DNA of 20,000 bases from an uncultured virus (IMG/VR IMGVR_UViG_2724679565_000006) (IMGVR_UViG_2724679565_000006), one strand, 5' to 3'. Counted from the stretch's first letter, positions 2,074 through 20,000 are shown. A program made the numbers and translations. Notes: generated by a model from the sequence alone, not told the origin.

Positions 2074-5000
2074 CTGAACCTCCCATGACTAAAGTCACGG
2101 AGTTCTTGGTCAATAACACTAATGTGTTAAGTATCACCAAGCTATCCCCATAGTTCCTACGGTTCTTATATATATTATTTTTATTCTTATATCTTATTTA
2201 CACACTTACATACTTACTACTTTTTTATTATTAATTATTCTTAAACCTTCATTTAAAATATTAATACTAGCATTATAATCTCTATCTATTACTAAACCAC
2301 ATTTCTCACAGATATATGCCCTTACTCCTAAGTCTTTAGTTTGTTGTGATTGATTGCCACAATCGCTACATAATTGACTAGATGGATAAAATCTATCTAT
2401 TTGTTGATATATTTTACCGTACCATTTTGTTTTATATTCTAATTCTCTATTAAACTCAAAGAAACTTGCATCTGCTATACTTTTAGCTAACTTATGATTT
2501 TGTAATATTCCACTTGTATTCAAATCTTCCATGCAAATAATATCATAGTTATTAATAAAATCTGTAGTTAATTTTTGAAGAAAATCTATTCTACAATTAT
2601 AAATTTTTTTATGATATTTGTTTACTTTTAATCTTTGTTTATTTCTATTATTGCTACCTTTTTTACGTTTACTAAGTTTTCTTTGAGCTTTTATTAATTT
2701 ATCTTCATATCTTCTATAATATTTAGGATTAGAAATAACTTTATTATCACTTGTAGTTGCAAACTCTTTTATTCCTAAATCTATTCCAACTACTAAACCT
2801 GTTTTCTCTTTATTTTCTTGTGGTACATCTACACAACACAAACTAATATAATATTTACCATCTGTATCTCTTGATAAAGTAGAACTAACTATTCTACCTT
2901 GATATTGTCTTGAATAAGCTATTTTTACTTGTTTTAATTTAGGTAATTTAATTTTACAATTTTGCTTCTTATATTTACCTGTAGATGTGTATTTTATTTC
3001 TTTTTCTAATACTTCTATATTATTATTTGTATAATTGATTTTAATAGATTGATAATTACTTTTATATGATTTAAACTTAGGAAAACCACATTCTTTCTTA
3101 AAGAATTTTAAAAATGTTTCATATTGATTTTTTAGAGTATTTTGCAATACAGATTTTTCACATTGTTTAAGCCATATATTTTTCTTTTTAAGTAGTGTTA
3201 ATAATCTTGACATTTTAGCAAAATTTAATACTGATTTATGATGTTTTAATCTATGTTTATTAATATTTAAAAAATAATTCCAAACATATCTTTTAGCATT
3301 AAAACTCAATTCTATTTGATTTATTTGAGTTTTATTGGGATAAATTCTATATTTAAATCCTTTTGCTATTGTATTCTTTTCAATATTTGTAGAAGTCATT
3401 TATTAACACCTCATTTTAAGACTTATATTTGCTTTTCTAAATATAATATATCATATTCTAAATTTAATGTCAACATATTTTGTTTAGGTTTATAAATATT
3501 ATATATTGACTTATAAAATATATATGATACAATCTAAATAAAAGGAGTGATTTAAATGATTAGTTATAAACCATTATTTAGATTATTATTAGAAAGAGAT
3601 ATGTCCAAAACTCAACTTCGTGAAGCAGTTGGTTTCAGCACAGCTACATTAGCAAAAATGTCTAAAAATGAATATATTTCCATGGAAACACTTGAAAATA
3701 TTTGTGTGTATCTTAATTGTAACATTGAAAATGTTATTGAATTCATACCTAAATAATTTAAATAATATATATAAGAACCGTAGGTTCTTTAATCATGTTT
3801 GAGGTATCGTTCACATAGGTTCGCTACTACCTATGCAGTTCTCTTATGAACTTCTCATACTTTCGTATGACGCACAGACTATATCTTATCCCTCATCATT
3901 ACATGTTAGGGTCTACCCACTTCGGTACGCTTGTACCTACTTCCCTCAAGAGGAATAGTCGTTGAAGTTTCCTCTGTTCGAGGCTTACCTGCTGATTGCC
4001 CATTGTTTTAGTGTTTAGGATTTAACCTTGCACTATCCAATTAATTTTTTCTACTTTCGTAACTTTCACACTTAGACTTATTTCATTCTTATGTTGTAGT
4101 TTAATTAGCTTTAGGGCTTCCCAGCAATTCAAGTAGTGTTGGGTATTGTGACTAATACCACTACATACAGATTTCTCTATATGCTAACTGTTTGCCAACT
4201 AACTCATGGCTGAAGTCACGAGTATGCGTTGGCAAGTCAATCAAAGTTTACTCCACCTTTTGCACCTTTGCCACCTACAATAATATCATTTGGATTAAAA
4301 TTAATATCTTTAGAATTTATTTTTGATGTATCTACAAATTCATATCCTAAAGGACTAAGCCATGCTATAGCATTTTTTAAATCTTGTCCTGTACCATATA
4401 CAATTCCGCCAACAGGCTTAATTCTTCCACTTTGAATATCTGAATATAATTGTATGATTCCTGCCGTATCATATCTATTTTTCCCACCTAGTCTTATAGC
4501 ACCATTTAAATCTTGTCTGTCAACACCATTAATAGCACCAGTATCTCCTACAACTATATCATCTTTCCCAAAATGTAATTTGTTTTTGTCTACAAGGCTT
4601 GTATCTATATAGTTATATCCTAAAGAACCTAATATCTTTCGAGCATTGGCTAAATCCGCCCCTGTCCCATATACATTTTTAGTTTTATTTTCTTCAAGTA
4701 TTTTATCAGGGTCTTTTTTATCTATTCCATTTACTAAGTCTTGTGCTGCTTTTAATTGTTCTAATAATTCCTTTTTTATTTTGTCTCCTAGTGAAGTTAA
4801 CCCTTTTCCAAATAAATCCTCAAATTGTAATAGAGCATTTTGGATTCCAATTCTCTTACCATCAATCCATTCAATATAGCCTTCAGTTAGTGCTTTTCTT
4901 GCATCTAAATTTAGATAAACATTATCTAATCTTGTGTCGATATCACGTTTTTTCTTTTCTATTTCTTTTTTCTTTTCTTCTTTCTGTTTTGTTAGGGCTT

Positions 5001-8000
5001 CTTTCTTTAATTCATTATTGTGCTTCATCTGTAGATCAGTCTTTTTCTTCATTTCCTCTTGTAATTGTTTTTCGTACTCTAGCCTTCTAGCTATGCCTTC
5101 TTCGCTATCATCTGTTGATAATTTGGCTATCTTTTCTTGTAATTCCGCTATAGTTTTTAACTGCTCGCTTTTCTGTTCATTATAACTATTTCGTTTTTCT
5201 GCATCATCTATTTTCTTTAACTCAGCATCTATAGATTCCTCGAAATGTTTTAAAACTTTATCTAATTGTTCTTTCGCTAATTCAGCAGTTTTAGTTAAGA
5301 CTTCTCTTAGTTTATCTTCTATAGTGGACTTCATTTCAGACATTTTGTCTTTGATATCTTCTAGCTCTTTTTTATGCTTTTCTAGTTCAGTATTAGCTTT
5401 ATCTAATTCAGCAGTATACTCTCTAACTTTATCTAACAAGAAATCTTTGCCATATTTATATGCTATATCATTAGTTTCTCGAATTAACTCAGTCATTCTT
5501 CTAATATTTTCTTCGTCTTGTTCTACTAGTTGCTTCTTTAATATCATTATTTGCTTGATATTTTTTTCTTCATGTAAACTAAGTCTATCTAGTTCATTTG
5601 AAATCATTTCTATATTTTCTTTATAAATCTGCTGGATGGCTTCCCATTTAGCTGTCACTAATTCCAAACTTACATCTTTTATAGTTTTAGTCACATTAAG
5701 CATTTCTGACGTATAAACTCTATAATTTCTTATAAATACCTTATAATTCTTACAGGCTTATTTCCTTCTTCATCCTGTTCCATTTTGTAGTGAATAAATC
5801 CACATACTACTTTGGTTTGTATAACAGTCTAAAGGCTTAAATTCGACCTCATCAATGTCTACATATTAGCATAATCTTTTTATTTGATTTTTTATGCTAA
5901 TTTATAATTTGCTAAATTAATACTTGCGTTTTTATCTCTATCTAATACAAGATCACACTTTTTATTAGGACATATATAAGTCCTATCTTTAAGTCTTAAA
6001 TCTTTTTTGATAGTTCCACAACAAGAACACATTTTACTACTTGGAAAGAACCTATCTGCTTTTACAAATTCAATTCCATCCCATTTACATTTATATTTTA
6101 GAATAGCTATAAATTTATTAAAACATTGCTCTTGAATTGCTTTAGATAAATGTTTGTTTTTTAATAATCCATTTACATTTAAATCTTCTACTACTACTCG
6201 ATATGGCTTGGTTTTCACGATACTATTAGTAGTTTGATGTATGTAATTTAATCTTATATCTGCAATTCTTTTATGAACAAGTCTAATCTGTCTTTCAAGT
6301 TTTATGATATTGTTAGTTTTCTTTAATTTTTGACCTTTTTCAAAAGTCTTACTATTTTTCAACATATCATATTTCCTTGAAACTTTCCTTTGTAGTCTTT
6401 TAAGTTTCTTATTTAATCTCTTAACTTCTTTAGATTTATTAATGTTTTTAAAAGGTTTATCTATATTGCTAACTATTGCTAAATCCTTGATACCTAAATC
6501 CACACCTATGCTTTCAGTTGTAAGCAAATTAACATCATTGTTCTTACATTCTACACCAACTGATAAATACCAATAATGTCCATTATGTTTTACTCTTGGA
6601 TTCAAGACTTTGATTTTATCTTTTTTATATTTACCAACAGGAAGCCTACCTTCATCTTTCATTTTTACATAGCCTATTTTTTCAAGCCTAATATAATTAT
6701 CTTCTACAGTAAGTTTATTACCTAAATGATAAAATGAAATTTCACATTTACCTTTCTTTTTAAACTTAGGATAATTGGATTCTTTCTTGAAAAATTTCTT
6801 AAACGCTTCTCCTAAATCTTTAAGTGCTTGTTGAGGTATTTCTGATGAGACTTCTTTAAGCCACTCATATTGATTAGATTTTCTTAATTCTGTAAATATT
6901 TTTCTTAACTTTCCTATTGATAAAGATTTTTTATTTTCTTTATAATAATTATTAAGATAAGCTAATCCCCAGTTATAAGAAAATCTAGCGATACCTGCAC
7001 TTTTAAACATTAATTCTTCTTGCTTTTTAGTAGGATATAATCTTACTTTAATTGCCTTTATCACTAATATCACCTCACTCTCTAATATTATTATACTACA
7101 AAGTCATATGACTTGCAATGACTATTTTCATGTAATATAATAAATTTGAGGTGATATTATGGGTAATCAACAATTAAAAACAAGAACACCTATTGGTTCA
7201 GCCATCAATACCGAACTTTATAACAAACTTAAAAATTACTCTAAAAAAACTGGAATACCAATCTCAAAATTGCTTGATAAAGCAATATCTTTATTTTTAG
7301 AATCCGTTGAAAAATAACGGATTTTTTATTTTAGCAAATTATTTTTATTGACATTTTCTTTAGTATAAAGTATTTATAGAGTTTACACTCTTTTATCTAT
7401 GAACGCTACTTCATAAACACTATTTCGCTCACGCTAATAGTCACTTCCTTTTAGAACGTGCAAAGACTATTTCTTCACCTTCAGCATAACCTGTTAAGGG
7501 CAGACCTTTTCGGTTATCAATAGCTTATAACCTACTCCCTTCTAGGGATAGTCGTTGAACCTTATTCATATATCTATTTAAAGATACTTAGAATCTTGGC
7601 TGCATGAACAGGGATTGTTTTTGAATACTTAGGATTTAACCTTATATTCATCTCTACGTTTTTTCTACTTTCGTACCTTCATATAGTGCTTTCACCTATG
7701 TTGTGGTGTAGAGCTTTACCCATTACCTGCAATTAAATCTGTGTCCTATGCTCATTACTGAACATACGCAGCTTAGTTTATATTTTTATAAACTATTTAT
7801 TACTGTTCCTATATCTGAATATTTTTCACCAAGCATTTTTATAGTTTTTTCATCATATATTCCTGAACTTATTTCTTTTTTTATAAAATCTCTTTCTTTT
7901 TTAAGAACATCCAACTTTTTAACGGTATAATCATCTATTTTAGATAGATAATTAATATAATTAATATCATTTTTATTTTGTAAATCGACATCAGTTCTTA

Positions 8001-11000: not shown

Positions 11001-13591
11001 ATACTTAGATGCTTGGCTGCGTTTGGTTGCCCAATTTTTATATTTTTTACCATACCTAAGCCGTTATACTTAGCCATTATATATGTTTCCATAATAACTT
11101 GGTATATAAAACTCTAAGGACTTCCCCGTCAATTTAAGCATTTTTAAATATACATTACTGCATACTCAGGCACACATTTTACCTGCTAAACTTTTAGCTA
11201 TATCTGCTTTTTGCAAGTCATTGAACTCTTGCCATTTTGGTTTTAGTTCTTCTATAATTTGTGAAAATTCTTTAAAATGATATTGATCTTTTCTTATAGC
11301 AACTCCTACTTTGTCTAATGACTTTTCAACATTGGATATAGTTACACCATCATCGACATTGATATTTTGTTTAATATCTTGAAATCTTGCGAAAATTGTT
11401 TTAAAGCTCTCTCCTATAGATTCCGCAGATTTTCTTGTTGTTGCCGAAACTGTAGCCACATAAGAAGCTAATGTTTCAAAATTTACTCCTGCCATTTGTG
11501 CTGAAGATGATGTTCTCATCATAGCAGTAGCAACTTCTTGGAATGAAGTAGCAGAAGCATTATCCAATGTTGAAATAGTGTCAATAACGTGCATTACCAC
11601 TTCTTCATAACTTTTACCATCTTTCTGTGCTTGTTCAGTCATGTTACTAAAACCATTTGTTATAGCAATTAGTTGCTCAGACACGGCTCTATTATCCTGT
11701 CCAGAAATAGCTCCACCTATAGTTGAAGCTTTTAATAATCCTTTTGTTTCTTCTACACTTCTACCAGCTCTAAGAAACTCTTCCGCACCCATTAATTATT
11801 TAAATTAATCAATAGACTATATCATACTTATTAGGTTAAGTCCTCGCACTTCCACCCATAGAATTTCGCTATGGATGTACTAACAGTGTTAATTCACTCT
11901 ACTTCCTTATTCACATAAACAACCCTAATTACATTTATGTTATGGTTTCGATAGTCGTTTAACGATTATATATTTAAAAATAAATATAATTTCGCACAGG
12001 ATTAGATTTCTCTTTCCCTGTTAGCCCATTCATTAACAAATTATTTCCCATTTGACCTTAACGTTGAATAGACACCCTAGATTTCTAGGTTCACGAGGTT
12101 TTACATGGGCAGTGTGCTTTGTCCACCCATCATTTCTAATGTAGTAGTATGTAATTGACCAGCCAATTTACTATATTCTCCTGTTAAATCAGCAACTTTA
12201 TCTTTTTGCATTCCTGTTATCATTGCTATATTAGTTTGAGCCTTATCCAAATTAGATATAAACCCAATACCATCTTTTACTTTATGGATTGCCTCCATCC
12301 AAGCAGTAGTAGCACCTATCCAAATGGGAAACTTTGTCATTGCCTCACCAATAGAAGCTAATATACCCCCATTCCCCTTTTTACCACCACTATTTACAGA
12401 GTTCTCTAATTTATCATATTCATTTTTTATAACCTTCAATTGTCTAGAATATTCTTCAGCATCTTTTGAATTTGCTAATTTAGCCATTTCTTCTCTTAGT
12501 TTTTTCAAATCAGCTTCTTTAATTAATTTCCCATAAGAATCTGTTAATTTTTTTATTTTATTTTCATATCCTTGAATTGCCACTGGAGCATCTTTCATTA
12601 TCTTTTCTTTTTTCTTCATTTCGGTGTTATTTTCTTTAATTGTTTTATTTTCAAAATTCATTTTGCTAACTAAAATATCAAGTTCTTTTTGAATACTTTT
12701 ACTCATAGACTCACTAGATGATTTTGTTTTATCAATTAAAGTCTGTGCTTGTTCAAGATTCTTAACAAACAATTGACTTTGGCTTCCATCACCTAATTTT
12801 ATATTTTTTTCATTTAATTTATCTATGGTTTTCTGATATTGTTCTAATGTTTTTATACTTTTTTGTACATTTTCAGTAGTATTAACACCCGTATTTTCTA
12901 AAGATAAGCCTTTATTTATAACATTTTCTTTTCTTTTTATATCTTCTTTTATCTTATACGCCTGTTCAACTAATTTATTATCATTATCTACATAACTAAT
13001 TTTTGCACTTTTAATTCTACCATTTCCGCTTTCACTAACCTTTAATTTAGCTATAGAACCAGTTAATTCTTCTATCTTTTTTCTTTCTTTTTCCAATGAT
13101 TTAATTATTTTATCCTGATCTTGTAATCTTGTATCAGTCACAGCTTTTAATTTATCAATATACTTTCCATCATTACCTATATTTTTAAATGATTTATCTA
13201 TCTCGTAATTCTTTGTTATAACATTTCCAGCTTTATCTTCATATTGAGCTAAAGCACCTATTATCTTTCCATAATCATCTTTTATAGAATTAACATTTAC
13301 ATTAGACCCTATGTTTTTTAAATTATTTTTTATTTTATCTATTTGTTGTTCAAATTGTTTATTTACATCATCGAAAGTCTTTATAAATGTTTGACTAGAC
13401 TGGTTACTAGTTTTAATAATTTCTTGCTGTAGTTTATTTATTTGTTGCTGCATTTTATCTAAAGACATACCATCTGAAAAATCTAGTTTTATTTTACTAT
13501 TTTCTCCTACTTTACCTAAAAGAGTTTCAACTCTAGTAGTTAAAGAACCTAAATCTTCTAAAGTAAACGAAGTATGTATCCCTAAACCCAT
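1396..13591 (-). CDS. Phage tail tape measure protein, spliced from 5 exons (12125-13591, 11181-11789, 7792-10809, 4240-5709, 1396-2073), about 2413 aa
   Basis: RBS AAGGAGG before ATG 13591. TP901-type TMP core motifs cross the junctions (TTLEMMG|GAEEFLRAG; IAKSLAG|THQRENFLVLM). All four junctions are phase 0 with a 5'-exon terminal U and an intron terminal G; exons total 7242 nt. Confidence 0.88.
2074..2205 (-). ncRNA. Putative TnpB omegaRNA (reRNA) scaffold; predicted guide is the flank GTAGACGGTGTTACTAGATT (2073-2054)
   Basis: Lies between the tnpB stop and the right end. Established TnpB biology: scaffold from the right end, guide from the 3' flank. 5' boundary uncertain. Confidence 0.7.
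2206..3399 (-). CDS. tnpB: RNA-guided endonuclease TnpB (IS200/IS605 family)
   Basis: N-terminal KGFKYRIYPNKTQ; RuvC-I GIDLG, RuvC-II MEDL, Zn finger CSDC...CEKC, RuvC-III DRDYNAS; all three catalytic acidic residues present. Confidence 0.95.
   Translation of the reverse strand: MTSTNIEKNTIAKGFKYRIYPNKTQINQIELSFNAKRYVWNYFLNINKHRLKHHKSVLNFAKMSRLLTLLKKKNIWLKQCEKSVLQNTLKNQYETFLKFFKKECGFPKFKSYKSNYQSIKINYTNNNIEVLEKEIKYTSTGKYKKQNCKIKLPKLKQVKIAYSRQYQGRIVSSTLSRDTDGKYYISLCCVDVPQENKEKTGLVVGIDLGIKEFATTSDNKVISNPKYYRRYEDKLIKAQRKLSKRKKGSNNRNKQRLKVNKYHKKIYNCRIDFLQKLTTDFINNYDIICMEDLNTSGILQNHKLAKSIADASFFEFNRELEYKTKWYGKIYQQIDRFYPSSQLCSDCGNQSQQTKDLGVRAYICEKCGLVIDRDYNASINILNEGLRIINNKKVVSM
3445..3473 (-). promoter_or_regulatory. 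sigmaA-like promoter for tnpB
   Basis: TTGACA-17nt-TATATT with an extended TG, upstream of RBS GAGGTG. Confidence 0.6.
3506..3533 (+). promoter_or_regulatory. sigmaA-like promoter for the HTH gene
   Basis: TTGACT-16nt-TACAAT with an extended TG, upstream of RBS AAGGAG. Confidence 0.55.
3556..3756 (+). CDS. Cro/C1-type HTH protein (HTH_26-like) inside the IStron, divergent from tnpB
   Basis: MISYKPLFRLLLERDMSKTQLREAVGFSTATLAKMSKNEYISMETLENIC; RBS AAGGAG. Confidence 0.9.
   Translation: MISYKPLFRLLLERDMSKTQLREAVGFSTATLAKMSKNEYISMETLENICVYLNCNIENVIEFIPK
3760..4239 (-). ncRNA. Group I ribozyme moiety of intron 4
   Basis: P AAUUGCUGGGAA (~4118-4129), Q AAUCAGCAGG (~3988-3997), R UUCAACGACUA (~3956-3966), S AAGAUAUAGUC (~3878-3888); IGS GUUAG can pair with exon UUGAU giving the U.G pair. 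Confidence 0.92.
4240..5709 (-). CDS. Tape measure exon 4 (coiled coil plus cell-wall-binding-like repeats)
   Basis: ORF 4237-5703 plus TCA GAA upstream; the TGA stop is the first three nt of the IStron; VYGTG.DL..A...L..LGY..DT...DI.VG repeats. Confidence 0.85.
5710..5891 (-). ncRNA. Putative TnpB omegaRNA scaffold and right end with periodic TTATA(A)G-type repeats
   Basis: About 180 nt between the tnpB stop and the element end, with local hairpins and repeats AATTATAAG/TTTATAAG/AATTATAG reminiscent of IS607 subterminal repeats. Confidence 0.6.
5892..7073 (-). CDS. tnpB: RNA-guided endonuclease TnpB
   Basis: KAIKVRLYPTKKQ; GVDLG, VVEDL, CSCC...CPNKKC, DRDKNAS; catalytic D-E-D intact. True start may be GTG 7064 (RBS GAGGTG). 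Confidence 0.95.
   Translation of the reverse strand: MILVIKAIKVRLYPTKKQEELMFKSAGIARFSYNWGLAYLNNYYKENKKSLSIGKLRKIFTELRKSNQYEWLKEVSSEIPQQALKDLGEAFKKFFKKESNYPKFKKKGKCEISFYHLGNKLTVEDNYIRLEKIGYVKMKDEGRLPVGKYKKDKIKVLNPRVKHNGHYWYLSVGVECKNNDVNLLTTESIGVDLGIKDLAIVSNIDKPFKNINKSKEVKRLNKKLKRLQRKVSRKYDMLKNSKTFEKGQKLKKTNNIIKLERQIRLVHKRIADIRLNYIHQTTNSIVKTKPYRVVVEDLNVNGLLKNKHLSKAIQEQCFNKFIAILKYKCKWDGIEFVKADRFFPSSKMCSCCGTIKKDLRLKDRTYICPNKKCDLVLDRDKNASINLANYKLA
7090..7141. promoter_or_regulatory. Back-to-back sigmaA promoters sharing one palindromic -35, with a 14-bp palindromic operator candidate
   Basis: TTGCAA at 7113-7118 has TATAAT 17 nt away on both strands (7095-7090 minus; 7136-7141 plus); AAGTCATATGACTT at 7101-7114. 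Confidence 0.7.
7159..7317 (+). CDS. Ribbon-helix-helix protein (RHH_3-like), 52 aa, divergent from tnpB
   Basis: Below the ORF-track cutoff; RBS GAGGTG; MGNQQLKTRTPIGSAINTELYNKLKNYSKKTGIPISKLLDKAISLFLESVEK. Confidence 0.85.
   Translation: MGNQQLKTRTPIGSAINTELYNKLKNYSKKTGIPISKLLDKAISLFLESVEK
7301..7332 (+). terminator. Intrinsic terminator of the RHH gene
   Basis: AATCCGTT-7nt-AACGGATT followed by a T tract. Confidence 0.65.
7389..7791 (-). ncRNA. Group I ribozyme moiety of intron 3
   Basis: P AAUUGCAGGUAA (~7723-7734), Q AUGCAGCCAAG (~7595-7605), R GUUCAACGACUAU (~7549-7561), S AAGAAAUAGUC (~7465-7475), P3 CAGAUUU/AAGGUCUG. Confidence 0.9.
7792..10809 (-). CDS. Tape measure exon 3 with hydrophobic segments, NlpC/P60 peptidase (~8620-8970) and SLT lytic transglycosylase (~8200-8560)
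   Basis: GKPYKWGG...FDCSGLVQYVY...HHVGIY...YIHA; IAAIIKAESDFNPNARSNAGAMGLMQLMP...AAYNAG. Confidence 0.92.
10810..11180 (-). ncRNA. ORF-less group I intron 2, 371 nt
   Basis: P1 CAGGU|/GCCUG; P10 UGUGU pairs with exon ACGCA; P AAUUGACGGGGAA; R UUCAACGAUUAU pairs with S AAGGUAUAAUC; terminal G10810; joins SLAG|THQRENF. Confidence 0.92.
11181..11789 (-). CDS. Tape measure exon 2 (TP901-family TMP core)
   Basis: AEEFLRAGRSVEET...DNASATSFQEVATAM...TTRKSAESIGESFKTIFARF. Confidence 0.92.
11790..12124 (-). ncRNA. ORF-less group I intron 1, 335 nt
   Basis: P1 AUGGGU|/GCCCAU; P3 CCUCGU/GCGAGG; P4 CAGG/CCUG; R AAACGACUAU, S AUGAUAUAGUC; P9.0 AU/AU; terminal G11790; joins EMMG|GAEEF. Confidence 0.92.
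12125..13591 (-). CDS. Tape measure exon 1
   Basis: Long helical N-terminus followed by AMTKFPIWIGATTAWMEAI...LDKAQTNIAMITG, the start of the TMP core. Confidence 0.9.
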
Positions 13592-13709
13592 TAAAAGTCC
13601 TCCTTTTATATTTTGTTTACTTTAATTATATTTACATAATATTTTTTATGTAGATATATTAAGCAAAAATAAAAAGACATTATGAAAATGCCTTTAAATC
13701 TTAATTTTA

Positions 13710-13750
13710 TGCAAAATAAAAACTCCTAACTAATTGAAGCTAGAAGTTTT
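13710..13750 (-). terminator. Intrinsic terminator
   Basis: AACUUCUAGC/GUUAGGAGUU stem followed by UUUAUUUUGCA. Confidence 0.6.
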
Positions 13751-13800
13751 AGTAAAACTTTTGAAACTTTATGTAGTTGTTTAATTAATATCAAAGACCA

Positions 13801-13833
13801 AACCACTATATATTTACAACATATATAGTGGTT
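13801..13833. terminator. Hairpin at the end of the GNAT gene
   Basis: 13-bp perfect inverted repeat AACCACTATATAT/ATATATAGTGGTT. Confidence 0.55.
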
Positions 13834-14389
13834 ATATTACGATATACAACGGTTTGCATCCTTCATTATCTGAATCTGAAAAAGTATCCTTATTCACTTC
13901 AAGCTCTTGAAAATTAAACTTTTCTTTATAAAAATCTGATGCTGATTCTACTGAAAACACTATTATATATTTAATAGCAATTTTCTCTTTTATTTCGTTA
14001 GCTAAAGTAATTATATACTTCATTATTTTCTTGCCATATCCTTTATTTTGATAATCTTTATCTATAGCTAATCTGGCAATCTCTAATGATGGAATAATCC
14101 TAATTTGTCCTTCATATTTTTCATCCTTTATTTTAACTATATTTGCCTTTAAAGTAAAGTATGCTATAATTGTTCGTTGATTTTTACAATTGTTGTGTAA
14201 AATAAGAAATGTATTACCTTCTCCGTTTTCATCATAATTAAGAGCTTCATTTTTAAAAAAAACCGTCATTTCTTCTTCTAACCCACAATCAAAATCACCC
14301 ATTATTCTCAAATGTTTATCTGCATTTATTCTTTCTATAGACGGTTTGTTATTCCTCAATATCGAAAAATTCCTTTGATTCCTTTGCAT
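13832..14389 (-). CDS. GNAT acetyltransferase, AtaT/TacT-like type II toxin candidate (start uncertain, possibly TTG 14359)
   Basis: FDCG..E...FF...AL N-terminal motif, IAYFTL, PSLEIARLAIDKDYQNKGYGK acetyl-CoA motif, ASDFY; overlaps the small upstream ORF. Confidence 0.85.
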   Translation of the reverse strand: MQRNQRNFSILRNNKPSIERINADKHLRIMGDFDCGLEEEMTVFFKNEALNYDENGEGNTFLILHNNCKNQRTIIAYFTLKANIVKIKDEKYEGQIRIIPSLEIARLAIDKDYQNKGYGKKIMKYIITLANEIKEKIAIKYIIVFSVESASDFYKEKFNFQELEVNKDTFSDSDNEGCKPLYIVI

Positions 14390-14573
14390 ACTTTTCTAAA
14401 GTTTCTTTATCATATGTAGGTTTTCTAAGTTTGTCCAATAATATTTTCGCTTGTTTTCCTTCGATTATTGGTAGAACGCCCATTGACACTGCCATAATCT
14501 CATCCCCCTTTTGTCTTCTCCTTTTATTAAATTTATAAGTCTTTTTACTACTTGTCCATCTCTCTATATTCAT
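14349..14573 (-). CDS. Putative cognate antitoxin of the GNAT toxin (alternative start 14495)
   Basis: Small ORF overlapping the GNAT start; MAVSMGVLPIIEGKQAKILLDKLRKP; RBS-like sequences before both 14573 and 14495. Confidence 0.6.
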   Translation of the reverse strand: MNIERWTSSKKTYKFNKRRRQKGDEIMAVSMGVLPIIEGKQAKILLDKLRKPTYDKETLEKYAKESKEFFDIEE

Positions 14574-14830
14574 TTTACCACTCCCAGTACAAATTATCAA
14601 TATTTTACAAAATATTTATAATAAAGCCTTTTTGGGTTATATTATTTATTTCGTTTGTATATATTAAATAATTAGCATATTTATATATTACCATAAATTG
14701 GTATACACTTGATGATAATTCGTACCAAAAATATAGACAAGATGAATGTTAAAAGCTATGAATTGTATACTAAGATACAAAGTTTTATTGAGAAATTTAT
14801 CGAATCATATTAGTGAAGATATATTTTACT

Positions 14831-15001
14831 TTACAAACCTTCCTTTTCCACGATTTCTTTTAAGTTTTTATCACACTCTTTAAAAACACTCAATTTTAAG
14901 GTACTTTTCTCCATATCCTTTAATAAAATCTTAGCGTCTTCTTTTTTTAAACAAGGTAAAATTCCCATAGATACTGACATAATCTTTTTCCTTTTATTCA
15001 T
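14831..15001 (-). CDS. Small protein paralogous to the GNAT-adjacent antitoxin candidate
   Basis: MSVSMGILPCLKKEDAKILLKDMEK vs MAVSMGVLPIIEGKQAKILLDKLRK. Confidence 0.7.
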   Translation of the reverse strand: MNKRKKIMSVSMGILPCLKKEDAKILLKDMEKSTLKLSVFKECDKNLKEIVEKEGL

Positions 15002-15096
15002 AATTTCTACCCCCATATAATAATAATATTTTTAATCTAATATCTTTTTCTATTATATATAAGGCATTTAATTTAACAAAGCTTAATCTTGAAATA

Positions 15097-15393
15097 TTAG
15101 TTATCATTTTCATCATGAGCTAGTTTGTTAAACAATTCTAATCCTTTTTTCGCTACATCAAGTCTTAAATTGGCAGACTCTATATCTTTTTTAAATAATT
15201 GAGTAGCCTCTTCATCTAAACAAGTTAAATATGCTTTTGATACTTCCATCTCTCCATCTTCTTCTTGAAGTTCCTTTTTCAATTCTTTCCATGTTATCTT
15301 TTTCATTTTCCCACTTCGGATGGCTTTCATTTGTTTGAAGCTTTCCTCAAAAGATTCGGAAACAGGACAGTATCTTTGAGCTACCTTTTTCAT
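15097..15393 (-). CDS. Two-module small protein (antitoxin-like fusion)
   Basis: RBS AGGGAGG; N-half MKKVAQR...SFEESFKQMK...GK resembles 15981-16142; C-half MEVSKAYLTCLDEEATQLFKKDIE resembles 14831-15001. Confidence 0.7.
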   Translation of the reverse strand: MKKVAQRYCPVSESFEESFKQMKAIRSGKMKKITWKELKKELQEEDGEMEVSKAYLTCLDEEATQLFKKDIESANLRLDVAKKGLELFNKLAHDENDN

Positions 15394-15433
15394 AATCAAC
15401 CTCCCTATTAACTTATTCGCTCTTATATATGTT

Positions 15434-15568
15434 TTACTCTATTGTAAGCAGAAACTCTTCTTTAGTAGCTTTCTGTAATGCTAAACTATACTTACTTGTA
15501 TTTTTCTCCTTTTTGTAATTTTGACTTTCTTTATCTCTGTAATCTTTTAAGCTAATTATTTTTCCCAT
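15434..15568 (-). CDS. Hypothetical 44-aa peptide
   Basis: RBS AGAGGT; MGKIISLKDYRDKESQNYKKEKNTSKYSLALQKATKEEFLLTIE. Confidence 0.55.
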   Translation of the reverse strand: MGKIISLKDYRDKESQNYKKEKNTSKYSLALQKATKEEFLLTIE

Positions 15569-15587
15569 ACAACTACCTCTTCGTCCC

Positions 15588-15806
15588 TTAATTTATATTT
15601 TTGATATCATTATCTTTATATAATTCATCCCACTCTGTTTCTTTTATCCATTCATCATCTTTAGTTAATAAGGTTCTACCTTTATCATCTGTTTTTATAT
15701 CTTTCATCAATAAAGCTTTTAGTTTTATTTTATCTCTTCTAATATACATCTTTTTCTTATCTTTTGTGAATGATTGACTACAGTTCATCCATCTTTTTAT
15801 ATTCAT
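15588..15806 (-). CDS. Small protein with acidic, Trp-rich C-terminus (antitoxin-like)
   Basis: MNIKRW...IKTDDKGRTLLTKDDEWIKETEWDELY. Confidence 0.65.
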   Translation of the reverse strand: MNIKRWMNCSQSFTKDKKKMYIRRDKIKLKALLMKDIKTDDKGRTLLTKDDEWIKETEWDELYKDNDIKNIN

Positions 15807-15810
15807 ACTA

Positions 15811-15977
15811 TTACTTCTTAGTCTCTTGCTTGATATTCCCTATTATGTCTTCTTCTTCATCTTCTGAAATTATAACTTGTCCCATTTTATTTCTTTTAAT
15901 ATTTTTTTAGCAATTATAGTAGCTTTATATAGATTATTATATAATTCTTTTTGCAATTCAGATAATCTGTCACTCAT
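15811..15977 (-). pseudogene. Small ORF with an apparent 1-nt deletion in an A7 run
   Basis: RBS GAGGTG; MSDRLSELQKELYNNLYKATIIAKK; adding one A continues NIKRNKMGQVIISEDEEED, similar to IKTDDKGRTLLTKDDE of the neighbouring ORF. Confidence 0.5.
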
Positions 15978-15980
15978 AGA

Positions 15981-16142
15981 TTACACCTCATTTTCTGATT
16001 CTTCTGCCCATTTATCCCATAATTGTTGAGATTCTTTTAATGATTTTAATTTTTTCTTACCTTTATTAAAATCCTGTATTTCTTGAAAACTTATTTCTAT
16101 AGATTTTAATATATCATTAGGTCTTTGACTTATTTTTTTCAT
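15981..16142 (-). CDS. Small 53-aa protein (antitoxin-like)
   Basis: RBS AAGAGG; MKKISQRPNDILKSIEISFQEIQDFNKGKKKLKSLKESQQLWDKWAEESENEV. Confidence 0.65.
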   Translation of the reverse strand: MKKISQRPNDILKSIEISFQEIQDFNKGKKKLKSLKESQQLWDKWAEESENEV

Positions 16143-16166
16143 AATAAAACCTCTTAATAATCTTAT

Positions 16167-16601
16167 TTAATCTTCCTCTCTATATTTTCCTCTCATTTTA
16201 TTACATATCTCATCCTCTTCTTGAGTAGATTTATAATTTCTATCATAATAATCATAGACTTCTTTTCTCTTTTTTGGGTCAACAATCATATCTGACATAG
16301 AATAAGATTCTATTTGTATTCTTTTGTCTTGAGAGTATGCTTCTAAATCTATTATCTTTCTCATATCCTTCCTCCTGATTAATAAAAGTTCTAATAGTTC
16401 CTTACCTTTAGCTAACTTTGCTTCTACATCTATATCCTCAATTTCTATTTTATCATTATGATCTCCCTCAAAAAACATATCTAAGTATCTATCATCATCA
16501 TATAGTAAATCTGCTTTTGCTTCCATTATTTCTTCCTTCGTTAAGGTTTCTTTTGGTTTTATTTCTTTTTTATAATCAAAAATATCAATTATTTTACCCA
16601 T
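16167..16601 (-). CDS. Two-module acidic protein, probably a fusion of two small genes
   Basis: MGKIIDIFDY... and internal MRKIIDLEAY... (ATG 16364) with its own RBS AGGAGG. Confidence 0.7.
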   Translation of the reverse strand: MGKIIDIFDYKKEIKPKETLTKEEIMEAKADLLYDDDRYLDMFFEGDHNDKIEIEDIDVEAKLAKGKELLELLLIRRKDMRKIIDLEAYSQDKRIQIESYSMSDMIVDPKKRKEVYDYYDRNYKSTQEEDEICNKMRGKYREED

Positions 16602-16617
16602 AATTTTCACTCCGTAC

Positions 16618-16773
16618 TTACGAATCAGCTAGTTTCTTTAACGCTTTAGCATATTTTTTATTACACTTTTTAATTGATAAAATTACATCTTTAGTATTTG
16701 CCACTATATAGTTTTGTGATGTCTTTTTTTCTTTAAGCTTATTTTTATTATCATTCCACCTTTTGAAATTCAT
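16618..16773 (-). CDS. Small 51-aa protein; C-terminus reminiscent of Doc-type antitoxin tails
   Basis: RBS AGGAG; MNFKRWNDNK...SIKKCNKKYAKALKKLADS. Confidence 0.6.
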   Translation of the reverse strand: MNFKRWNDNKNKLKEKKTSQNYIVANTKDVILSIKKCNKKYAKALKKLADS

Positions 16774-16797
16774 AATTTTTCTCCTATACTTTTGAAA

Positions 16798-16959
16798 TTA
16801 TTTTTTAGATGGTTTTTTATATAAATTAGCAACTCTTTTACATTCATCTAAGTATTCTTTAGTTAGTCCTGGTTTTTCTAACTTTTTAACTATACTATTG
16901 AAATCATCTTTGGATACTGTAAATTCAAATATATTATTACTTCTATTAATTTTTGTCAC
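16798..16959 (-). CDS. Small 53-aa protein resembling GNAT-antitoxin C-terminal halves
   Basis: RBS AAGGGG, GTG start; FTVSKDDFNSIVKKLEKPGLTKEYLDEC vs AKILLDKLRKPTYDKETLEKY. Confidence 0.6.
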   Translation of the reverse strand: MTKINRSNNIFEFTVSKDDFNSIVKKLEKPGLTKEYLDECKRVANLYKKPSKK

Positions 16960-16975
16960 GATCTTATCCCCTTTA

Positions 16976-17160
16976 TTATATATCTTCACATTCTTTAAAA
17001 TAATCATATAAAGATTTTTCATTTATTGGTTTTACAAATTGTGAAAATATTTCTCTTCCTTCTGCATATTCTTCTTGAGAAAGGTGTTCTTAGTTATTTT
17101 TGTATTTAAAAAAGATTGTTCATTTTTATTTTTTTCTCTTATAGAATCTAATGTTATCAT
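16976..17160 (-). pseudogene. Small ORF, either 42 aa (stop 17032) or a frameshifted 61-aa gene
   Basis: RBS GAGAGG; MITLDSIREK...; one added A at ACT AA(A) GAA gives KEHLSQEEYAEGREIFSQFVKPINEKSLYDYFKECEDI, ending just before the next RBS. Confidence 0.45.
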
Positions 17161-17227
17161 ACTACCTCTCTCCCCCTTTTTTTTGTTCCATAATATAATC
17201 CTCTTACAATTACTATTCTTAATTATA

Positions 17228-17578
17228 TTATAACTCTAAAACAACTATGTTATCTATATACTCCAATTCAATATCTCCAAAATCATCATTCCAACTAATT
17301 AATCCTAATTTAGAAATTCCAAATATACAATTTTCTATATAATCTTCTCCATCATCAGTATTTAAACAAGCTTGTCCTGTTATTAAAATCTTATATTCAT
17401 TTTCCTCTACTGTAAAATCTTCTATAGCTAATACAATATCCTCTTGTTTTATGTATGTGCCGAATAGATTAATTGTTTTTAGTTTTTCCACTAACCCCTG
17501 AATCATTTCTTCATTCTCTTTTTCATAATTTTTAGCATTATTAATTATTTCTTGTTCCCAGTTTATTTTATTTAACAT
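17228..17578 (-). CDS. Hypothetical acidic protein
   Basis: RBS AGGGAG before ATG 17578; no recognised motif. Confidence 0.7.
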   Translation of the reverse strand: MLNKINWEQEIINNAKNYEKENEEMIQGLVEKLKTINLFGTYIKQEDIVLAIEDFTVEENEYKILITGQACLNTDDGEDYIENCIFGISKLGLISWNDDFGDIELEYIDNIVVLEL

Positions 17579-17649
17579 ACAAAACAACTCCCTATATTAT
17601 AATATTTGCAAGGTTTGGATTAATTGGTTTGTTTTGCCTTACAAATATT

Positions 17650-17678
17650 ATAATACTACCCCTTATCTTGTGTGTCAA
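17650..17678 (-). promoter_or_regulatory. sigmaA-like promoter upstream of the small-ORF array
   Basis: TTGACA-17nt-TATTAT. Confidence 0.6.
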
Positions 17679-17702
17679 TACTTTTATTAATATATTTTTC
17701 CG

Positions 17703-17906
17703 TTACTCTTTTATTAATTTAAAAATATCATCTGTACTTGTCTCTAAAACTTCTGATATTTTTAAGGCAACTTCTAAACTTGTATTGTACTTACCATTTA
17801 TAATATTACTAAGAGTTTTTGAATTAATTCCCACTTGTTCTGCTAACCATACTTGTTTGATTCCTCTATCTTTCAATATTTCTTTTAGATTGTTTTTTAC
17901 TGTCAT
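17703..17906 (-). CDS. XRE-family HTH transcriptional regulator
   Basis: NNLKEILKDRGIKQVWLAEQVGINSKTLSNIINGKYNTSLEVALKISEVL; RBS GGAGGG. Confidence 0.9.
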   Translation of the reverse strand: MTVKNNLKEILKDRGIKQVWLAEQVGINSKTLSNIINGKYNTSLEVALKISEVLETSTDDIFKLIKE

Positions 17907-17989
17907 TTATTAAATCCCTCCATATATTTTTATATGAGTTTTATGAGATTATTGTACCATATTTACTCATGAAATTTGATTTAAATTAA

Positions 17990-18021
17990 AAATGACATAT
18001 ATTGGAAACTATATGTCATTT
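17990..18021. terminator. Hairpin downstream of the lipoprotein gene
   Basis: AAATGACATAT/ATATGTCATTT inverted repeat. Confidence 0.5.
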
Positions 18022-18038
18022 CGTTTAAATTATAATAC

Positions 18039-18401
18039 TTATTTAAGATATATATCATCGGTTTTTATTTTTCTATTCTCACCTTCACCTTCAATTCTAA
18101 CAGTACAATGCCAATCCCAACGAATCTTAGCACCAAAACTATTTTCTGAATCCACATATCCAGAAACTTCATACTTATCGCCACCTAAGTCTTGTACCAA
18201 TTTTTCATCAAATTCTTGAAATTTAGCTGTTGAAGGAGATGTTAATTTTTGTTCTACTAAGCCTGTAGTAGCTTTATAGACATCGAATTTATAATGCCTA
18301 GCTTTATCCTCTTCTGATTCACTACACCCAACAAATAATCCTAAGCATAAAATAAAACTTAAACATAATAAGACCATTTTAAAAAACTTTTTCTTTTTCA
18401 C
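18039..18401 (-). CDS. Lipoprotein of unknown function
   Basis: RBS GGAGG, GTG start at 18401; basic N-terminus, hydrophobic core, lipobox FVGC; L.SPSTAKF...V.GYVDSENSFGA motif. Confidence 0.8.
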   Translation of the reverse strand: MKKKKFFKMVLLCLSFILCLGLFVGCSESEEDKARHYKFDVYKATTGLVEQKLTSPSTAKFQEFDEKLVQDLGGDKYEVSGYVDSENSFGAKIRWDWHCTVRIEGEGENRKIKTDDIYLK

Positions 18402-18592: not shown

Positions 18593-18810
18593 TATATAAT
18601 ACTATTAAAATATTCTTGTGTTACACCTAATTGGTCTTTCAATATATGCCTCCATAACTAATGTTTGATTTCTCCAGACCCTCGTGATACTTTAGTTTTT
18701 CTTATATTCCCATTTGAATCTTTTTTTCTATAATAATAATGGTTAGTATCTTTATATAGCTCCCATCCTTCTCTATCACAAAATCTTTTTAGTTCTTTGC
18801 ACTTCGGCAT
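18592..18810 (-). pseudogene. HicA-like toxin interrupted by an in-frame TAG at codon 51 (18660-18658)
   Basis: MPKCKELKRFCDREGWELYKDTNHYYYRK...TKVSRGSGEIKH*LWRHILKDQLGVTQEYFNSII; overlaps the upstream antitoxin-like gene. Confidence 0.75.
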
Positions 18811-19097
18811 TTTATGATTTCCTTTATTTTGTCTTCTTTCGTATTTTTAAACAGCTCTGAAAGAAATTGAACTTGAGATTTTCTTCTACTATCTGTACTC
18901 CAATAATCAGGTTCAGCTATATAATCGTCAATATAATCTTTTAATTCCTTAACTATTTCAGAAATAGCATCATTATAATTATTTGCATTTACTACAATAT
19001 CAAATTTTTCTAAAGAAAGTGTTACACTTCCATCATCCTCAATATATTTAATACAATTAAGAGACGTGTTATTATCTATATTCATAACCTTTTTCAC
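18789..19097 (-). CDS. HicB-like antitoxin candidate
   Basis: EDDGSVTLSLEKFDIVVNANNYNDAISEIVKELKDYIDDY pattern; coupled to the HicA-like ORF. Confidence 0.65.
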   Translation of the reverse strand: MKKVMNIDNNTSLNCIKYIEDDGSVTLSLEKFDIVVNANNYNDAISEIVKELKDYIDDYIAEPDYWSTDSRRKSQVQFLSELFKNTKEDKIKEIIKCRSAKN

Positions 19098-19355: not shown

Positions 19356-19880
19356 TTATTCTTTAGTTACCGCAACTTGTTCTTCAGTAATATCATGTGC
19401 CAATTCAGCTATTAAATAAGATTTTATATCTGTTATATGTTGTCTAAAATAATTATTCTTATTATCTTCAAAAGATAAAATTCTTGATAATTTATATTCC
19501 AATTCAGCTATCATTTTTTTATTTTTAATAATAACAATTTTTTCATCAAACCCAATATAATCCCTTTCTATGTACTTTTCAGTTATAGGAATAACATCAC
19601 TAATGAAAAAGATTGATTTTAAGTTTGTCCTACCTACATGATAGAAACAAGACCTTATGTCTCTTTTAGGATAGCTTAGATATTTTTCTATTCTACTTTT
19701 CGCTTTTTCGTCTCTATGATTCCAATTTCCTACTGGTATAGCCCAATATAAGCCATTAACTTTATTTGACTCAATTAAACATATAATAGGACGTTCTTTT
19801 GAATCGTTCCATACTCCACCACATTTTTTAATTCTCTCATATATATCTTTTTTAGCGAAATACATTGCCTTTTCTTCCAT
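19356..19880 (-). CDS. Type III toxin, CptN-like endoribonuclease (174 aa)
   Basis: RBS GGAGAGGG before ATG 19880; KERPIICLIE...LYWAIPVG...FFISDVIPITEKYIERDY; preceded by repeats and a terminator. Confidence 0.8.
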   Translation of the reverse strand: MEEKAMYFAKKDIYERIKKCGGVWNDSKERPIICLIESNKVNGLYWAIPVGNWNHRDEKAKSRIEKYLSYPKRDIRSCFYHVGRTNLKSIFFISDVIPITEKYIERDYIGFDEKIVIIKNKKMIAELEYKLSRILSFEDNKNNYFRQHITDIKSYLIAELAHDITEEQVAVTKE

Positions 19881-19896
19881 AATTCCCTCTCCAATG

Positions 19897-19923
19897 AAAA
19901 AGAACCTATAAAACAGGTTCTTT
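19897..19923 (-). terminator. Terminator between the antitoxin RNA repeats and the toxin gene
   Basis: AAAGAACCU...AGGUUCUUUUU. Confidence 0.8.
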
Positions 19924-19924
19924 C

Positions 19925-20000
19925 CAACAATGTTTCTTTGTCGCACATTGTGAAGCGTATTTGTATCAACAATGTTTCTTTGTCGCACATTGTGAAGCGT
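19925..20000 (-). ncRNA. Type III antitoxin RNA (CptI-like) tandem repeats, 42-nt period, truncated by the window edge
   Basis: ACGCTTCACAATGTGCGACAAAGAAACATTGTTG repeated (19925-19958, 19967-20000); H-type pseudoknot possible (CGC/GCG and ACAAUGU/ACAUUGU). Confidence 0.8.

Follow-up and report, generated by a model that had tools for sequence, protein, structure and literature searches.

In this study we analysed a row of small open reading frames (ORFs) in a stretch of 20,000 nucleotides (nt) from an uncultured virus (IMG/VR IMGVR_UViG_2724679565_000006). The whole stretch is hereafter called the window, and the element from which it comes is treated as a phage-plasmid of about 200 kb from the Clostridium botulinum/sporogenes group. 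Eleven co-oriented small ORFs occupy positions 17160-14349 of the minus strand, and the ORF of a GNAT acetyltransferase toxin (14389-13832) comes next (Table 1). Most of the row appears to consist of antitoxins of toxin-antitoxin (TA) systems that stand without toxin genes, and we put it slightly above an even chance that the row is a domesticated bank of antitoxins that neutralise the toxins of rival elements.

An initial annotation, made from the sequence alone, had described tightly packed, co-oriented small ORFs with ribosome-binding sites downstream of a promoter. The 11 ORFs agree with this description. Shine-Dalgarno (SD) matches were found at 5-10 nt for most row starts, against 9 of 100 background ATGs of the region, and a promoter-like TTGACA-17-TATTAT is present upstream. 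The row does not follow this promoter directly, however, as a gene of 119 amino acids (aa) lies in between. The ORFs of 100 and 144 aa do exist but turned out to be in-frame fusions of modules that are separate in relatives. Because relatives hold as separate genes what is fused in the window, we counted 13 modules ahead of a1 (the antitoxin that pairs with the GNAT): F2, F3, F4, F5a, F5b, F5c, b2, F7, F8, F9, b1, a3 and a2.

Homologs directly upstream of a toxin gene were found for 9 of the 13 modules in Clostridium plasmids or virus records, and these nine can be regarded as type II antitoxins by descent. The toxins next to the homologs belong to the GNAT (three modules), PemK/MazF (two), Doc, PIN and, tentatively, RelE/ParE-like (two) classes. 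The suggestion that chromosomal homologs might sit beside GNAT, RelE, MazF/PemK or Doc toxins was thus borne out in kind for these nine modules, the homologs lying in plasmids or virus records.

The closest relatives were found for a2, a3 and b1. Module a2 and L001 6156-6380, which lies upstream of the GNAT of plasmid pNPD1_1, share 85% identity over 54 aa (E 5e-31), and a3, the C-terminal half of the 100-aa ORF, is 75% identical over 53 aa to the GNAT-adjacent L002 6004-6237 of plasmid pRSJ19_2. For b1, the N-terminal half of the same ORF, the identity to L002 9963-10181 is 79% over 47 aa; this relative, also in pRSJ19_2, precedes a 120-aa ParE-like ORF (PF05016 E 0.0036, below the cut-off). 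These values suggest that only for a2, a3 and b1 is the identity (75-85%) compatible with cross-reaction. The GNATs of pNPD1_1 and pRSJ19_2 are only 35% and 33% identical to the GNAT of the window. Three mutually divergent GNAT toxins (33-35% identity) circulate on the sister plasmids, and the window has antitoxin copies for all three.

The other links are more distant. The L001 copy of F2 is 47% identical over 60 aa (tblastn E 1e-7) to L012 2884-3189, a leader-bearing antitoxin (see below) upstream of a 198-aa PemK/MazF toxin elsewhere on plasmid p1BKT015925; an ORF of L057 that is near-identical to this toxin matches PF02452 at 4.3e-6. The second MazF-adjacent antitoxin in the cassette stack of that plasmid, L010 4219-4446, has a PemK/MazF gene directly behind it and shares 38% identity with F8 over 74 aa (pairwise E 1e-14). 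Neither F2 nor F8 matched an AbrB/MazE-type family, and their MazF link is by homolog context. The likeness of one peptide to Doc antitoxins, suspected from its C-terminal tail, is confirmed by context: F4 is 54% identical over 35 aa (pairwise E 8e-12) to L010 5976-6215, directly upstream of a Fic/Doc toxin (PF02661 2e-16). F4 showed no Phd/YefM match in Pfam, NCBIfam or PHROG, so that this link also is by homolog context only. A PIN toxin (PIN_3 3.3e-16) follows L014 2381-2629, an ORF in another plasmid of the p1BKT015925 kind, and the intact L001 copy of F7 is 45% identical to this ORF over 40 aa (E 3e-11); by tblastn the identity is 60% over 30 aa (E 1e-3), and it is the C-terminal half of F7 that was matched. 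Module b2 showed 49% identity over 47 aa, at a weak E of 0.03, to L011 2489-2644 of a Clostridium perfringens plasmid; a 125-aa ORF overlapping this one matched RelE and ParE below threshold. The RelE/ParE-type partner ORFs scored 18.2-19.6 bits against Pfam cut-offs of 23-27, with the same two families for three different ORFs, and the RelE/ParE assignments of the partners of the b family are tentative.

The three parts of the 144-aa ORF are separate ORFs in L003 and L019, and F5c retains its own AGGAGG-6-ATG at 16364 in the window. F5b is 60% identical over 25 aa to L059 758-1024, and for its L003 copy the identity is 56% over 57 aa (E 1e-21). Downstream of L059 758-1024 lies a GNAT of phrog_1758 (4e-26) that has no Pfam hit and covers profile positions 60-166 only. 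F5a is 57% identical over 53 aa (E 7e-18) to the leader-bearing ORF of L069. The cassette links of F5a and F5b both come from the leader scan of virus contigs described below. Directly downstream of leader-bearing antitoxins resembling F5a lie ORFs of 232 aa (L071 44-739) and 106 aa (L069 380-697), which had no match in Pfam, PHROG or PDB sequences and may be considered candidate unrecognised toxins.

Several modules are paralogs of one another, as the initial annotation had claimed. In a 21-sequence database, to which the E values of this comparison refer, the 48-aa GNAT-adjacent peptide matched a2 (38% over 47 aa, E 1.2e-8) and a2 matched a3 (40% over 35 aa, E 3e-6), which together form group (a); b1 matched b2 (34% over 53 aa, E 9e-6), forming group (b). 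For a third proposed group, (c), the comparison within the window gave no significant match (E 0.06), one of the partners being broken there; the intact copy of the broken gene in a sister plasmid is 47% identical over 30 aa to an antitoxin beside MazF (E 7e-5).

Within the row the modules stand without toxins. ORF and Pfam scans gave no toxin-family match within 17587-14600, in agreement with the claim that the GNAT is the only toxin accompanying the array, and Pfam likewise showed no DNA-binding domain in any module, as had been claimed. As orphans, these modules are found again in 5-17 plasmid records, which fall into two different backbones, namely plasmids of about 200 kb, non-mobilizable and with tail genes, and plasmids of 149-275 kb, of which L003 and L004 are typed MPF_T. 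In pNPD1_1, which holds F2-F9 and b2, six-frame searches of the whole record for Fic/Doc, PIN_3 and relatives of the L002-type ParE-like ORF were negative. One MazF is present in this plasmid, 125 kb from the row and beside a partition gene; it was rejected as a partner of F2, being unrelated to the MazF beside the F2-like antitoxin (E 0.71).

A common N-terminal leader of 23-39 codons (M-N/K-I-x-R/K-W-T...) opens the cognate antitoxins of GNAT, MazF, Doc, PIN, ParE-like and HicA-like partners. The leader is basic and ends just ahead of a Met. Leaders start at 14573 in the window (14573-14496), at 6380 in L001, at 6237 and 10181 in L002 and at 5097 and 7819 in L005, and are also present in L010, L012 and L014. 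The leader frame was open in 12 of 12 cases: its 349 codons contain no stop, while the other two frames have 46 and 42, a count that is not unbiased since the 12 were chosen as annotated with the leader. The conserved Arg codon is AGA in some copies and CGT in others, which argues for selection on the leader peptide. SD sequences precede both the leader ATG and the internal ATG, which suggests that a long and a short form of the protein may be made.

The leader DNA pattern gave 48 hits in virus contigs, corresponding to 24 distinct ORFs: 19 leader-bearing and antitoxin-like, four of an unrelated 54-aa family and one nine-codon stub. Among 185,579 species-representative genomes it gave 19 hits in unrelated taxa, about the estimated chance number, with none in Clostridium botulinum. 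In the row itself, neither leader nor cassette promoter is present in a2, a3, b1, F2 and F5a, whose starts coincide with the internal Met of the cognates, while F4 and F8 retain the first residues of the leader. Plain deletion of a toxin gene would be insufficient to produce the former five, because leader and promoter would remain.

The modules are under purifying selection. The ratio of nonsynonymous to synonymous substitution rates (dN/dS; Nei-Gojobori method, copies in different plasmids) was 0.08-0.39 for every module, including F3 (0.20-0.22) and F9 (0.08). Pooled over eight orphan-versus-orphan pairs it was 0.24 (Fisher p 3e-19), and for three neighbouring backbone genes 0.17.

These observations could be explained by the following scenario. 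Stacks of complete type II TA cassettes, as in p1BKT015925, would be ancestral, and deletions between short similar sequences would have removed toxin genes, promoters and N-terminal leaders. What remained would be the toxin-neutralising bodies only, about 13 modules, with one intact cassette of antitoxin and GNAT at the end. The bodies would be produced from a backbone promoter and would bind GNAT, MazF, Doc, PIN and RelE/ParE-like toxins of related competing elements, and the modules would be retained because neutralising bodies are useful. The carrier could then enter a cell and coexist with or displace a rival without post-segregational poisoning (anti-addiction); alternatively, it might escape toxin-based exclusion at entry (counter-exclusion). 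Since a conserved inverted repeat and an adjacent gene of an XRE-type helix-turn-helix (HTH) protein lie upstream of the row, it is conceivable that the row is expressed at the time of entry and repressed, through this protein and the repeat, once the element has settled. The targets look more like rival plasmids or phage-plasmids than the host; the cassette type is at chance level in the species-representative genomes. Expression of the row, toxin binding and the identity of the targets are inferred from sequence. Of the initial proposal of an antitoxin bank, the multi-family, antitoxin-derived peptides without toxins on a phage-like element are upheld, and the disarming function stays an inference.

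Several points weigh against this scenario. None of the modules matched a curated antitoxin family (Pfam, PHROG, NCBIfam, the A1 profile and PADLOC), and in PADLOC none of the 10 row or GNAT proteins was matched at E up to 0.001. No toxin-linked relative was found for F3, F5c or F9. F3 occurs in 12 plasmid records, each time within such rows, and had no significant match to leader-bearing antitoxins and no toxin-adjacent relative; F5c also occurs in 12 plasmid records, in rows only and with no relative outside them; F9 occurs in five, each time within rows, and again no toxin-adjacent relative was found. The nearest cognates of F2, F4, F7, F8 and b2 are only 38-60% identical and belong to other Clostridium lineages, so that the toxins beside them are only candidate targets; the b2 link is weak, and the ParE/RelE assignments lie below the Pfam cut-offs. 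In the window, F2 is frameshifted by a 1-nt deletion and F7 carries a 1-nt deletion in an A-run together with an 81-nt deletion that removes its PIN-antitoxin-like part, although both 1-nt deletions may be sequencing errors. The b1-a3 and F5a-b-c in-frame fusions resemble by-products of deletion and could impair function. Finally, a dN/dS below 1 is a sign of past constraint and does not indicate the cause of that constraint.

According to the main rival explanation, the row is a graveyard of TA cassette turnover at a hot spot, where functionless antitoxin fragments linger after easy loss of the toxins. An origin by deletion is common to both explanations, and the difference is whether selection keeps the modules. 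The slot is indeed a hot spot. In L005 it is occupied by a PIN TA pair with no row, the nearest record (G001) has nothing of the row, the set of modules differs in every element compared, and the related plasmid p1BKT015925 carries four complete TA pairs stacked near tail genes. In L019 a 40-aa hybrid ORF (5730-5852) has the start of a PIN-adjacent antitoxin and the end of a2, joined at a short common motif, and this is direct evidence that modules have recombined with each other. The two frameshifted modules and the two fusions of the window, as broken and fused copies, also favour debris. Debris would not be expected, however, to show a pooled dN/dS between orphan copies that is near that of backbone genes, to keep its SD sites, to recur as the same orphans on two unrelated backbones in up to 17 records, or to have leader and promoter removed cleanly from five modules. 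Weighing the dN/dS values, the occurrence on two backbones and the precise removal of leaders and promoters, we favour retention of the modules and consider a graveyard rather unlikely.

Two further explanations were considered. The small proteins might serve their own element, as trans-acting antitoxins or regulators for toxins or TA promoters elsewhere in the plasmid or its usual host, or in a role unrelated to toxins. The sister plasmids do carry a single MazF, distant from the row and lacking an annotated antitoxin as neighbour, and three modules lack any toxin link. On the other hand, pNPD1_1 has no Doc, PIN_3 or ParE-like toxin to be served, its MazF is not of the type found beside the F2-like antitoxin, and no module has a DNA-binding domain; we regard a self-serving role as improbable. 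That the row is composed of chance ORFs in AT-rich DNA, which are not genes at all, might be suggested by the very short ORFs and the absence of curated family matches. The ribosome-binding sites, the dN/dS of 0.08-0.39, the annotation as coding sequences in sister records and the homology to toxin-adjacent antitoxins already refute it for most modules, and it may apply only to minor ORFs such as 15116-14994 (40 aa). For the row as a whole it is extremely improbable.

The antitoxin bank, our preferred explanation, may also be placed in a broader picture, which we advance tentatively and consider less probable than the bank itself. Clostridium phage-plasmids might share modular TA cassettes built with one promoter and one dual-start leader for at least six toxin classes, and the row, as a domesticated, leaderless and co-transcribed library of neutralising bodies, would be the counter-weapon in an arms race among them. 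Its carrier would then be broadly immune to rival poisons, and this would determine which element can invade or replace which.

Table 1. Features of the row and of its surroundings, with positions counted in the window.
Feature	Position	Strand	Length	Description
XRE-type HTH protein	17906-17703	minus		upstream of promoter; HTH_3/HTH_26 match
Operon promoter-like sequence	17678-17650	minus		TTGACA-17-TATTAT; 11/12 matches, best in 13500-18100
Inverted repeat	17595-17655		19 nt	95% complementary, 23 nt apart; overlaps -10 box of operon promoter
First operon gene	17587-17228	minus	119 aa	backbone gene, between promoter and row
F2	17160-17032	minus	42 aa	frameshifted here by 1-nt deletion; 61-71 aa, intact, in relatives
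F3	16959-16798 (ORF 17022-16798)	minus	53 aa	true start GTG 16959; loosely like group (a)
F4	16773-16618	minus	51 aa	Doc-antitoxin-like
F5	16601-16167	minus	144 aa	in-frame fusion F5a + F5b + F5c
b2	16142-15981	minus	53 aa	b1 paralog, RelE/ParE-antitoxin-like (tentative)
F7 remnant	15977-15811 (ORF 15977-15870)	minus	35 aa (ORF)	1-nt deletion in A-run and 81-nt internal deletion
F8	15806-15588	minus	72 aa	MazF-antitoxin-like; first leader residues retained
F9	15568-15434	minus	44 aa	N-terminus resembles start of F5a
b1-a3 fusion	15399-15097	minus	100 aa	in-frame; b1 RelE/ParE-antitoxin-like (tentative), a3 GNAT-antitoxin-like
a2	15016-14831	minus	61 aa	short start 14980; orphan copy of another GNAT's antitoxin
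Cassette promoter-like sequence	14600-14572	minus		TTGATA-17-TAAAAT with TG; overlaps leader ATG of a1
a1	14573-14349	minus	74 aa	cognate antitoxin of the window GNAT; overlaps its longer reading
GNAT acetyltransferase toxin	14359-13832	minus	175 aa	from TTG 14359; open from ATG 14389

The only complete cassette at the end of the row consists of a1 and the GNAT. The GNAT matched Pfam Acetyltransf_7 (1.4e-8, above the cut-off) and phrog_1758 (1.3e-31). Its 14 best PDB sequences are TA-type acetyltransferase toxins including KacT (E 3e-6 to 5e-4), and ordinary GNATs such as RimI matched only at E >0.01; the other top PDB entries are presumably AtaT, TacT and ItaT. By its sequence the protein is a TA-type toxin nearest to AtaT/KacT/TacT. 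The TTG start is fitting because a 95% identical protein is 175 aa long. Antitoxin a1 consists of a 26-codon leader (MNIERW...) and a 48-aa body with its own SD sequence and ATG at 14495. It matched no family in Pfam, PHROGs or NCBIfam. A word-indexed protein search gave four relatives of a1 (of the four named rows, two are labelled C. botulinum) and two of the GNAT, so that the alignments are shallow. The GNAT-adjacent antitoxin of p1BKT015925 (L010) is 37% identical to a1 over 83 aa.

A possible membership of the (a) family in DUF1778 (TacA/AtaR/KacA), suggested by a likeness of the a1 body to the C-terminal part of such antitoxins, was dropped. At E up to 10, Pfam gave no hits for any of the seven members of the A1 alignment; among PDB sequences no antitoxin chain was matched by the A1 profile, and a1 showed no DUF1778 or ribbon-helix-helix (RHH) match. 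Look-ups of a1 and F5 in the ESM Atlas gave best values of 0.84 and 0.81, below the level of a lead, with Atlas models of low confidence. P0004, a protein of 54 aa encoded on a contig of some 204 kb, combines a short N-terminus like that of the orphan a2 with a body of the a1 type. It may be an orphan copy, in another element, of the antitoxin to the GNAT of the window; its context was sought among virus contigs and not found.

As for expression signals, the operon promoter is kept in 4 of 4 aligned sister sequences and would drive the 119-aa gene and the row. The 119-aa gene is 73-81% identical in L001, L002 and L005, is present also where the row is absent, and matched no family in a Pfam scan. 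The inverted repeat is kept in four plasmids, L001, L002 and L005 among them and one of the four without the row, and is a candidate operator of the XRE-type HTH protein. The sole terminator-like hairpins of the region both follow the GNAT, one directly after its stop (13833-13801) and one at 13750-13719. The DNA upstream of the a1 cassette recurs ahead of other TA cassettes. No RNA family of Rfam was matched in the row.

The window has a G+C content of about 27%, and its long ORFs are without exception on the minus strand. The DNA of 13800-17700 matched none of 50,697 phage records and 21 of 72,556 plasmid records, all of Clostridium (botulinum or sporogenes), the best with 88.7% identity over 78%. 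The closest plasmid records are circular, 197-215 kb long and typed non-mobilizable, and a tape-measure gene and other tail genes flank the matching stretch in them. The nearest record found is G001, a virus record 199,910 bp long that has terminal repeats. The element was treated as a phage-plasmid because of the tail genes and this virus record with terminal repeats.

From position 20000 downwards the genes of the minus strand are a type III toxin of the CptIN family, a PHD_like antitoxin with a short HicA-like ORF, a lipoprotein, the XRE-type HTH protein, the promoter, the 119-aa gene, the row, the GNAT and pieces of the tape-measure gene. The CptIN-family toxin gene (NF047359, E 4e-15) lies within 19356-20000, and the RNA upstream of it matches Rfam RF02920 'Fusobacteriales-1' with 62.9 bits, above the gathering score, in a match that runs off the window end; this RNA probably serves as the antitoxin of the type III pair. 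At 18658-19097, the PHD_like antitoxin (PF12910, 4e-11) is without the leader present in its 153-aa relatives, and the HicA-like ORF after it has 50 aa here against 72 aa in the sister plasmids, so that this pair may be in decay. Two ORFs of about 395 aa (2206-3399 and 5892-7073), of IS605 OrfB/TnpB-type appearance by eye, sit amid pieces of the very long tape-measure gene (phrog_4211); a related plasmid region carries the annotation 'transposase, IS605 OrfB family'.

The anti-addiction idea is old but thinly documented, mostly with single genes. The locus is a compact natural test bed for it, with a dozen candidate neutralisers, reciprocal variation between elements, and three candidates whose near-identical cognate toxins are present on sequenced sister plasmids. 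As the locus further shows, the context of distant relatives can serve to assign very small 'hypothetical' ORFs of hot spots in plasmids and phages where a family model is lacking, and the analysis brings to light a leader common to antitoxins. A full-text literature search for a row or operon of multi-family orphan antitoxins found no paper; supplements, including the Supplementary Discussion on antitoxins of PMC11541004, were not covered.

Excerpts of PMC7354431 and PMC12548467 describe orphan antitoxins as anti-addiction modules, such as the chromosomal CcdA of Erwinia against CcdB of the F plasmid, and also the four orphan antitoxins of plasmid pVbh. The likeness to the present row is that toxinless antitoxin genes are proposed to act against the toxins of another mobile element. 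Those orphans are, however, single or few scattered genes, whereas here about 13 modules related to at least five toxin classes are collected in one operon of a phage-plasmid, and most of them are trimmed.

Phages provide a second comparison. AdfN, an orphan DarG1-like NADAR protein of a phage, is a proven counter-defence factor that lacks the N-terminal extension of its cognate (excerpt of PMC11825919), and Dmd of T4 and pseudo-ToxI are phage counter-defence antitoxins cited in the corresponding part of PMC12548467. In each case a mobile element carries an antitoxin-like factor against toxins which that element does not encode, and the leaderless modules of the row resemble AdfN also in being without the N-terminal part of the cognate. 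The difference is that AdfN, Dmd and pseudo-ToxI are single factors of proven activity, each directed against one defence system, whereas the row comprises many type II-like peptides known by sequence.

In the MPF_T plasmid pOsaka2020-1 (L004), a row of the same kind adjoins a stand-alone gene of the NADAR family, the kind of orphan antitoxin with shown phage counter-defence. This gene (6354-6863) lies about 430 nt upstream of the row, with a PAPS-reductase-family gene and a methyltransferase gene beside it, and the stretch looks like an anti-defence island. An excerpt of PMC11541004 reports that orphan antitoxins are enriched among the early-entering genes of plasmid leading regions and suggests that they act against competitor elements or host TA defence. 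In having NADAR, PAPS-reductase-family and methyltransferase genes beside them, the MPF_T rows recall such leading-region islands; the row of the window differs from them in lying in a hot spot among tail genes, with sister plasmids typed non-mobilizable.

The terminal cassette resembles the pairs of GNAT toxin and DUF1778 (RHH) antitoxin, AtaRT, TacAT and KacAT (excerpt of PMC9177977), in that a small antitoxin gene lies directly upstream of the GNAT toxin and overlaps it. It differs from them in the antitoxin, since a1 shows no DUF1778/RHH match, as a single sequence or as a profile, and has the shared leader and the 48-aa body instead. A further counterpart of the row is the stack of p1BKT015925 (L010), where four complete TA pairs (MazF twice, GNAT and Doc) lie between a large tail-region gene and tail genes. 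The two loci are alike in their leader-type antitoxins, in their place near tail genes and in their toxin classes, but in the stack every antitoxin is accompanied by its toxin, whereas in the window this is so in the last cassette only.

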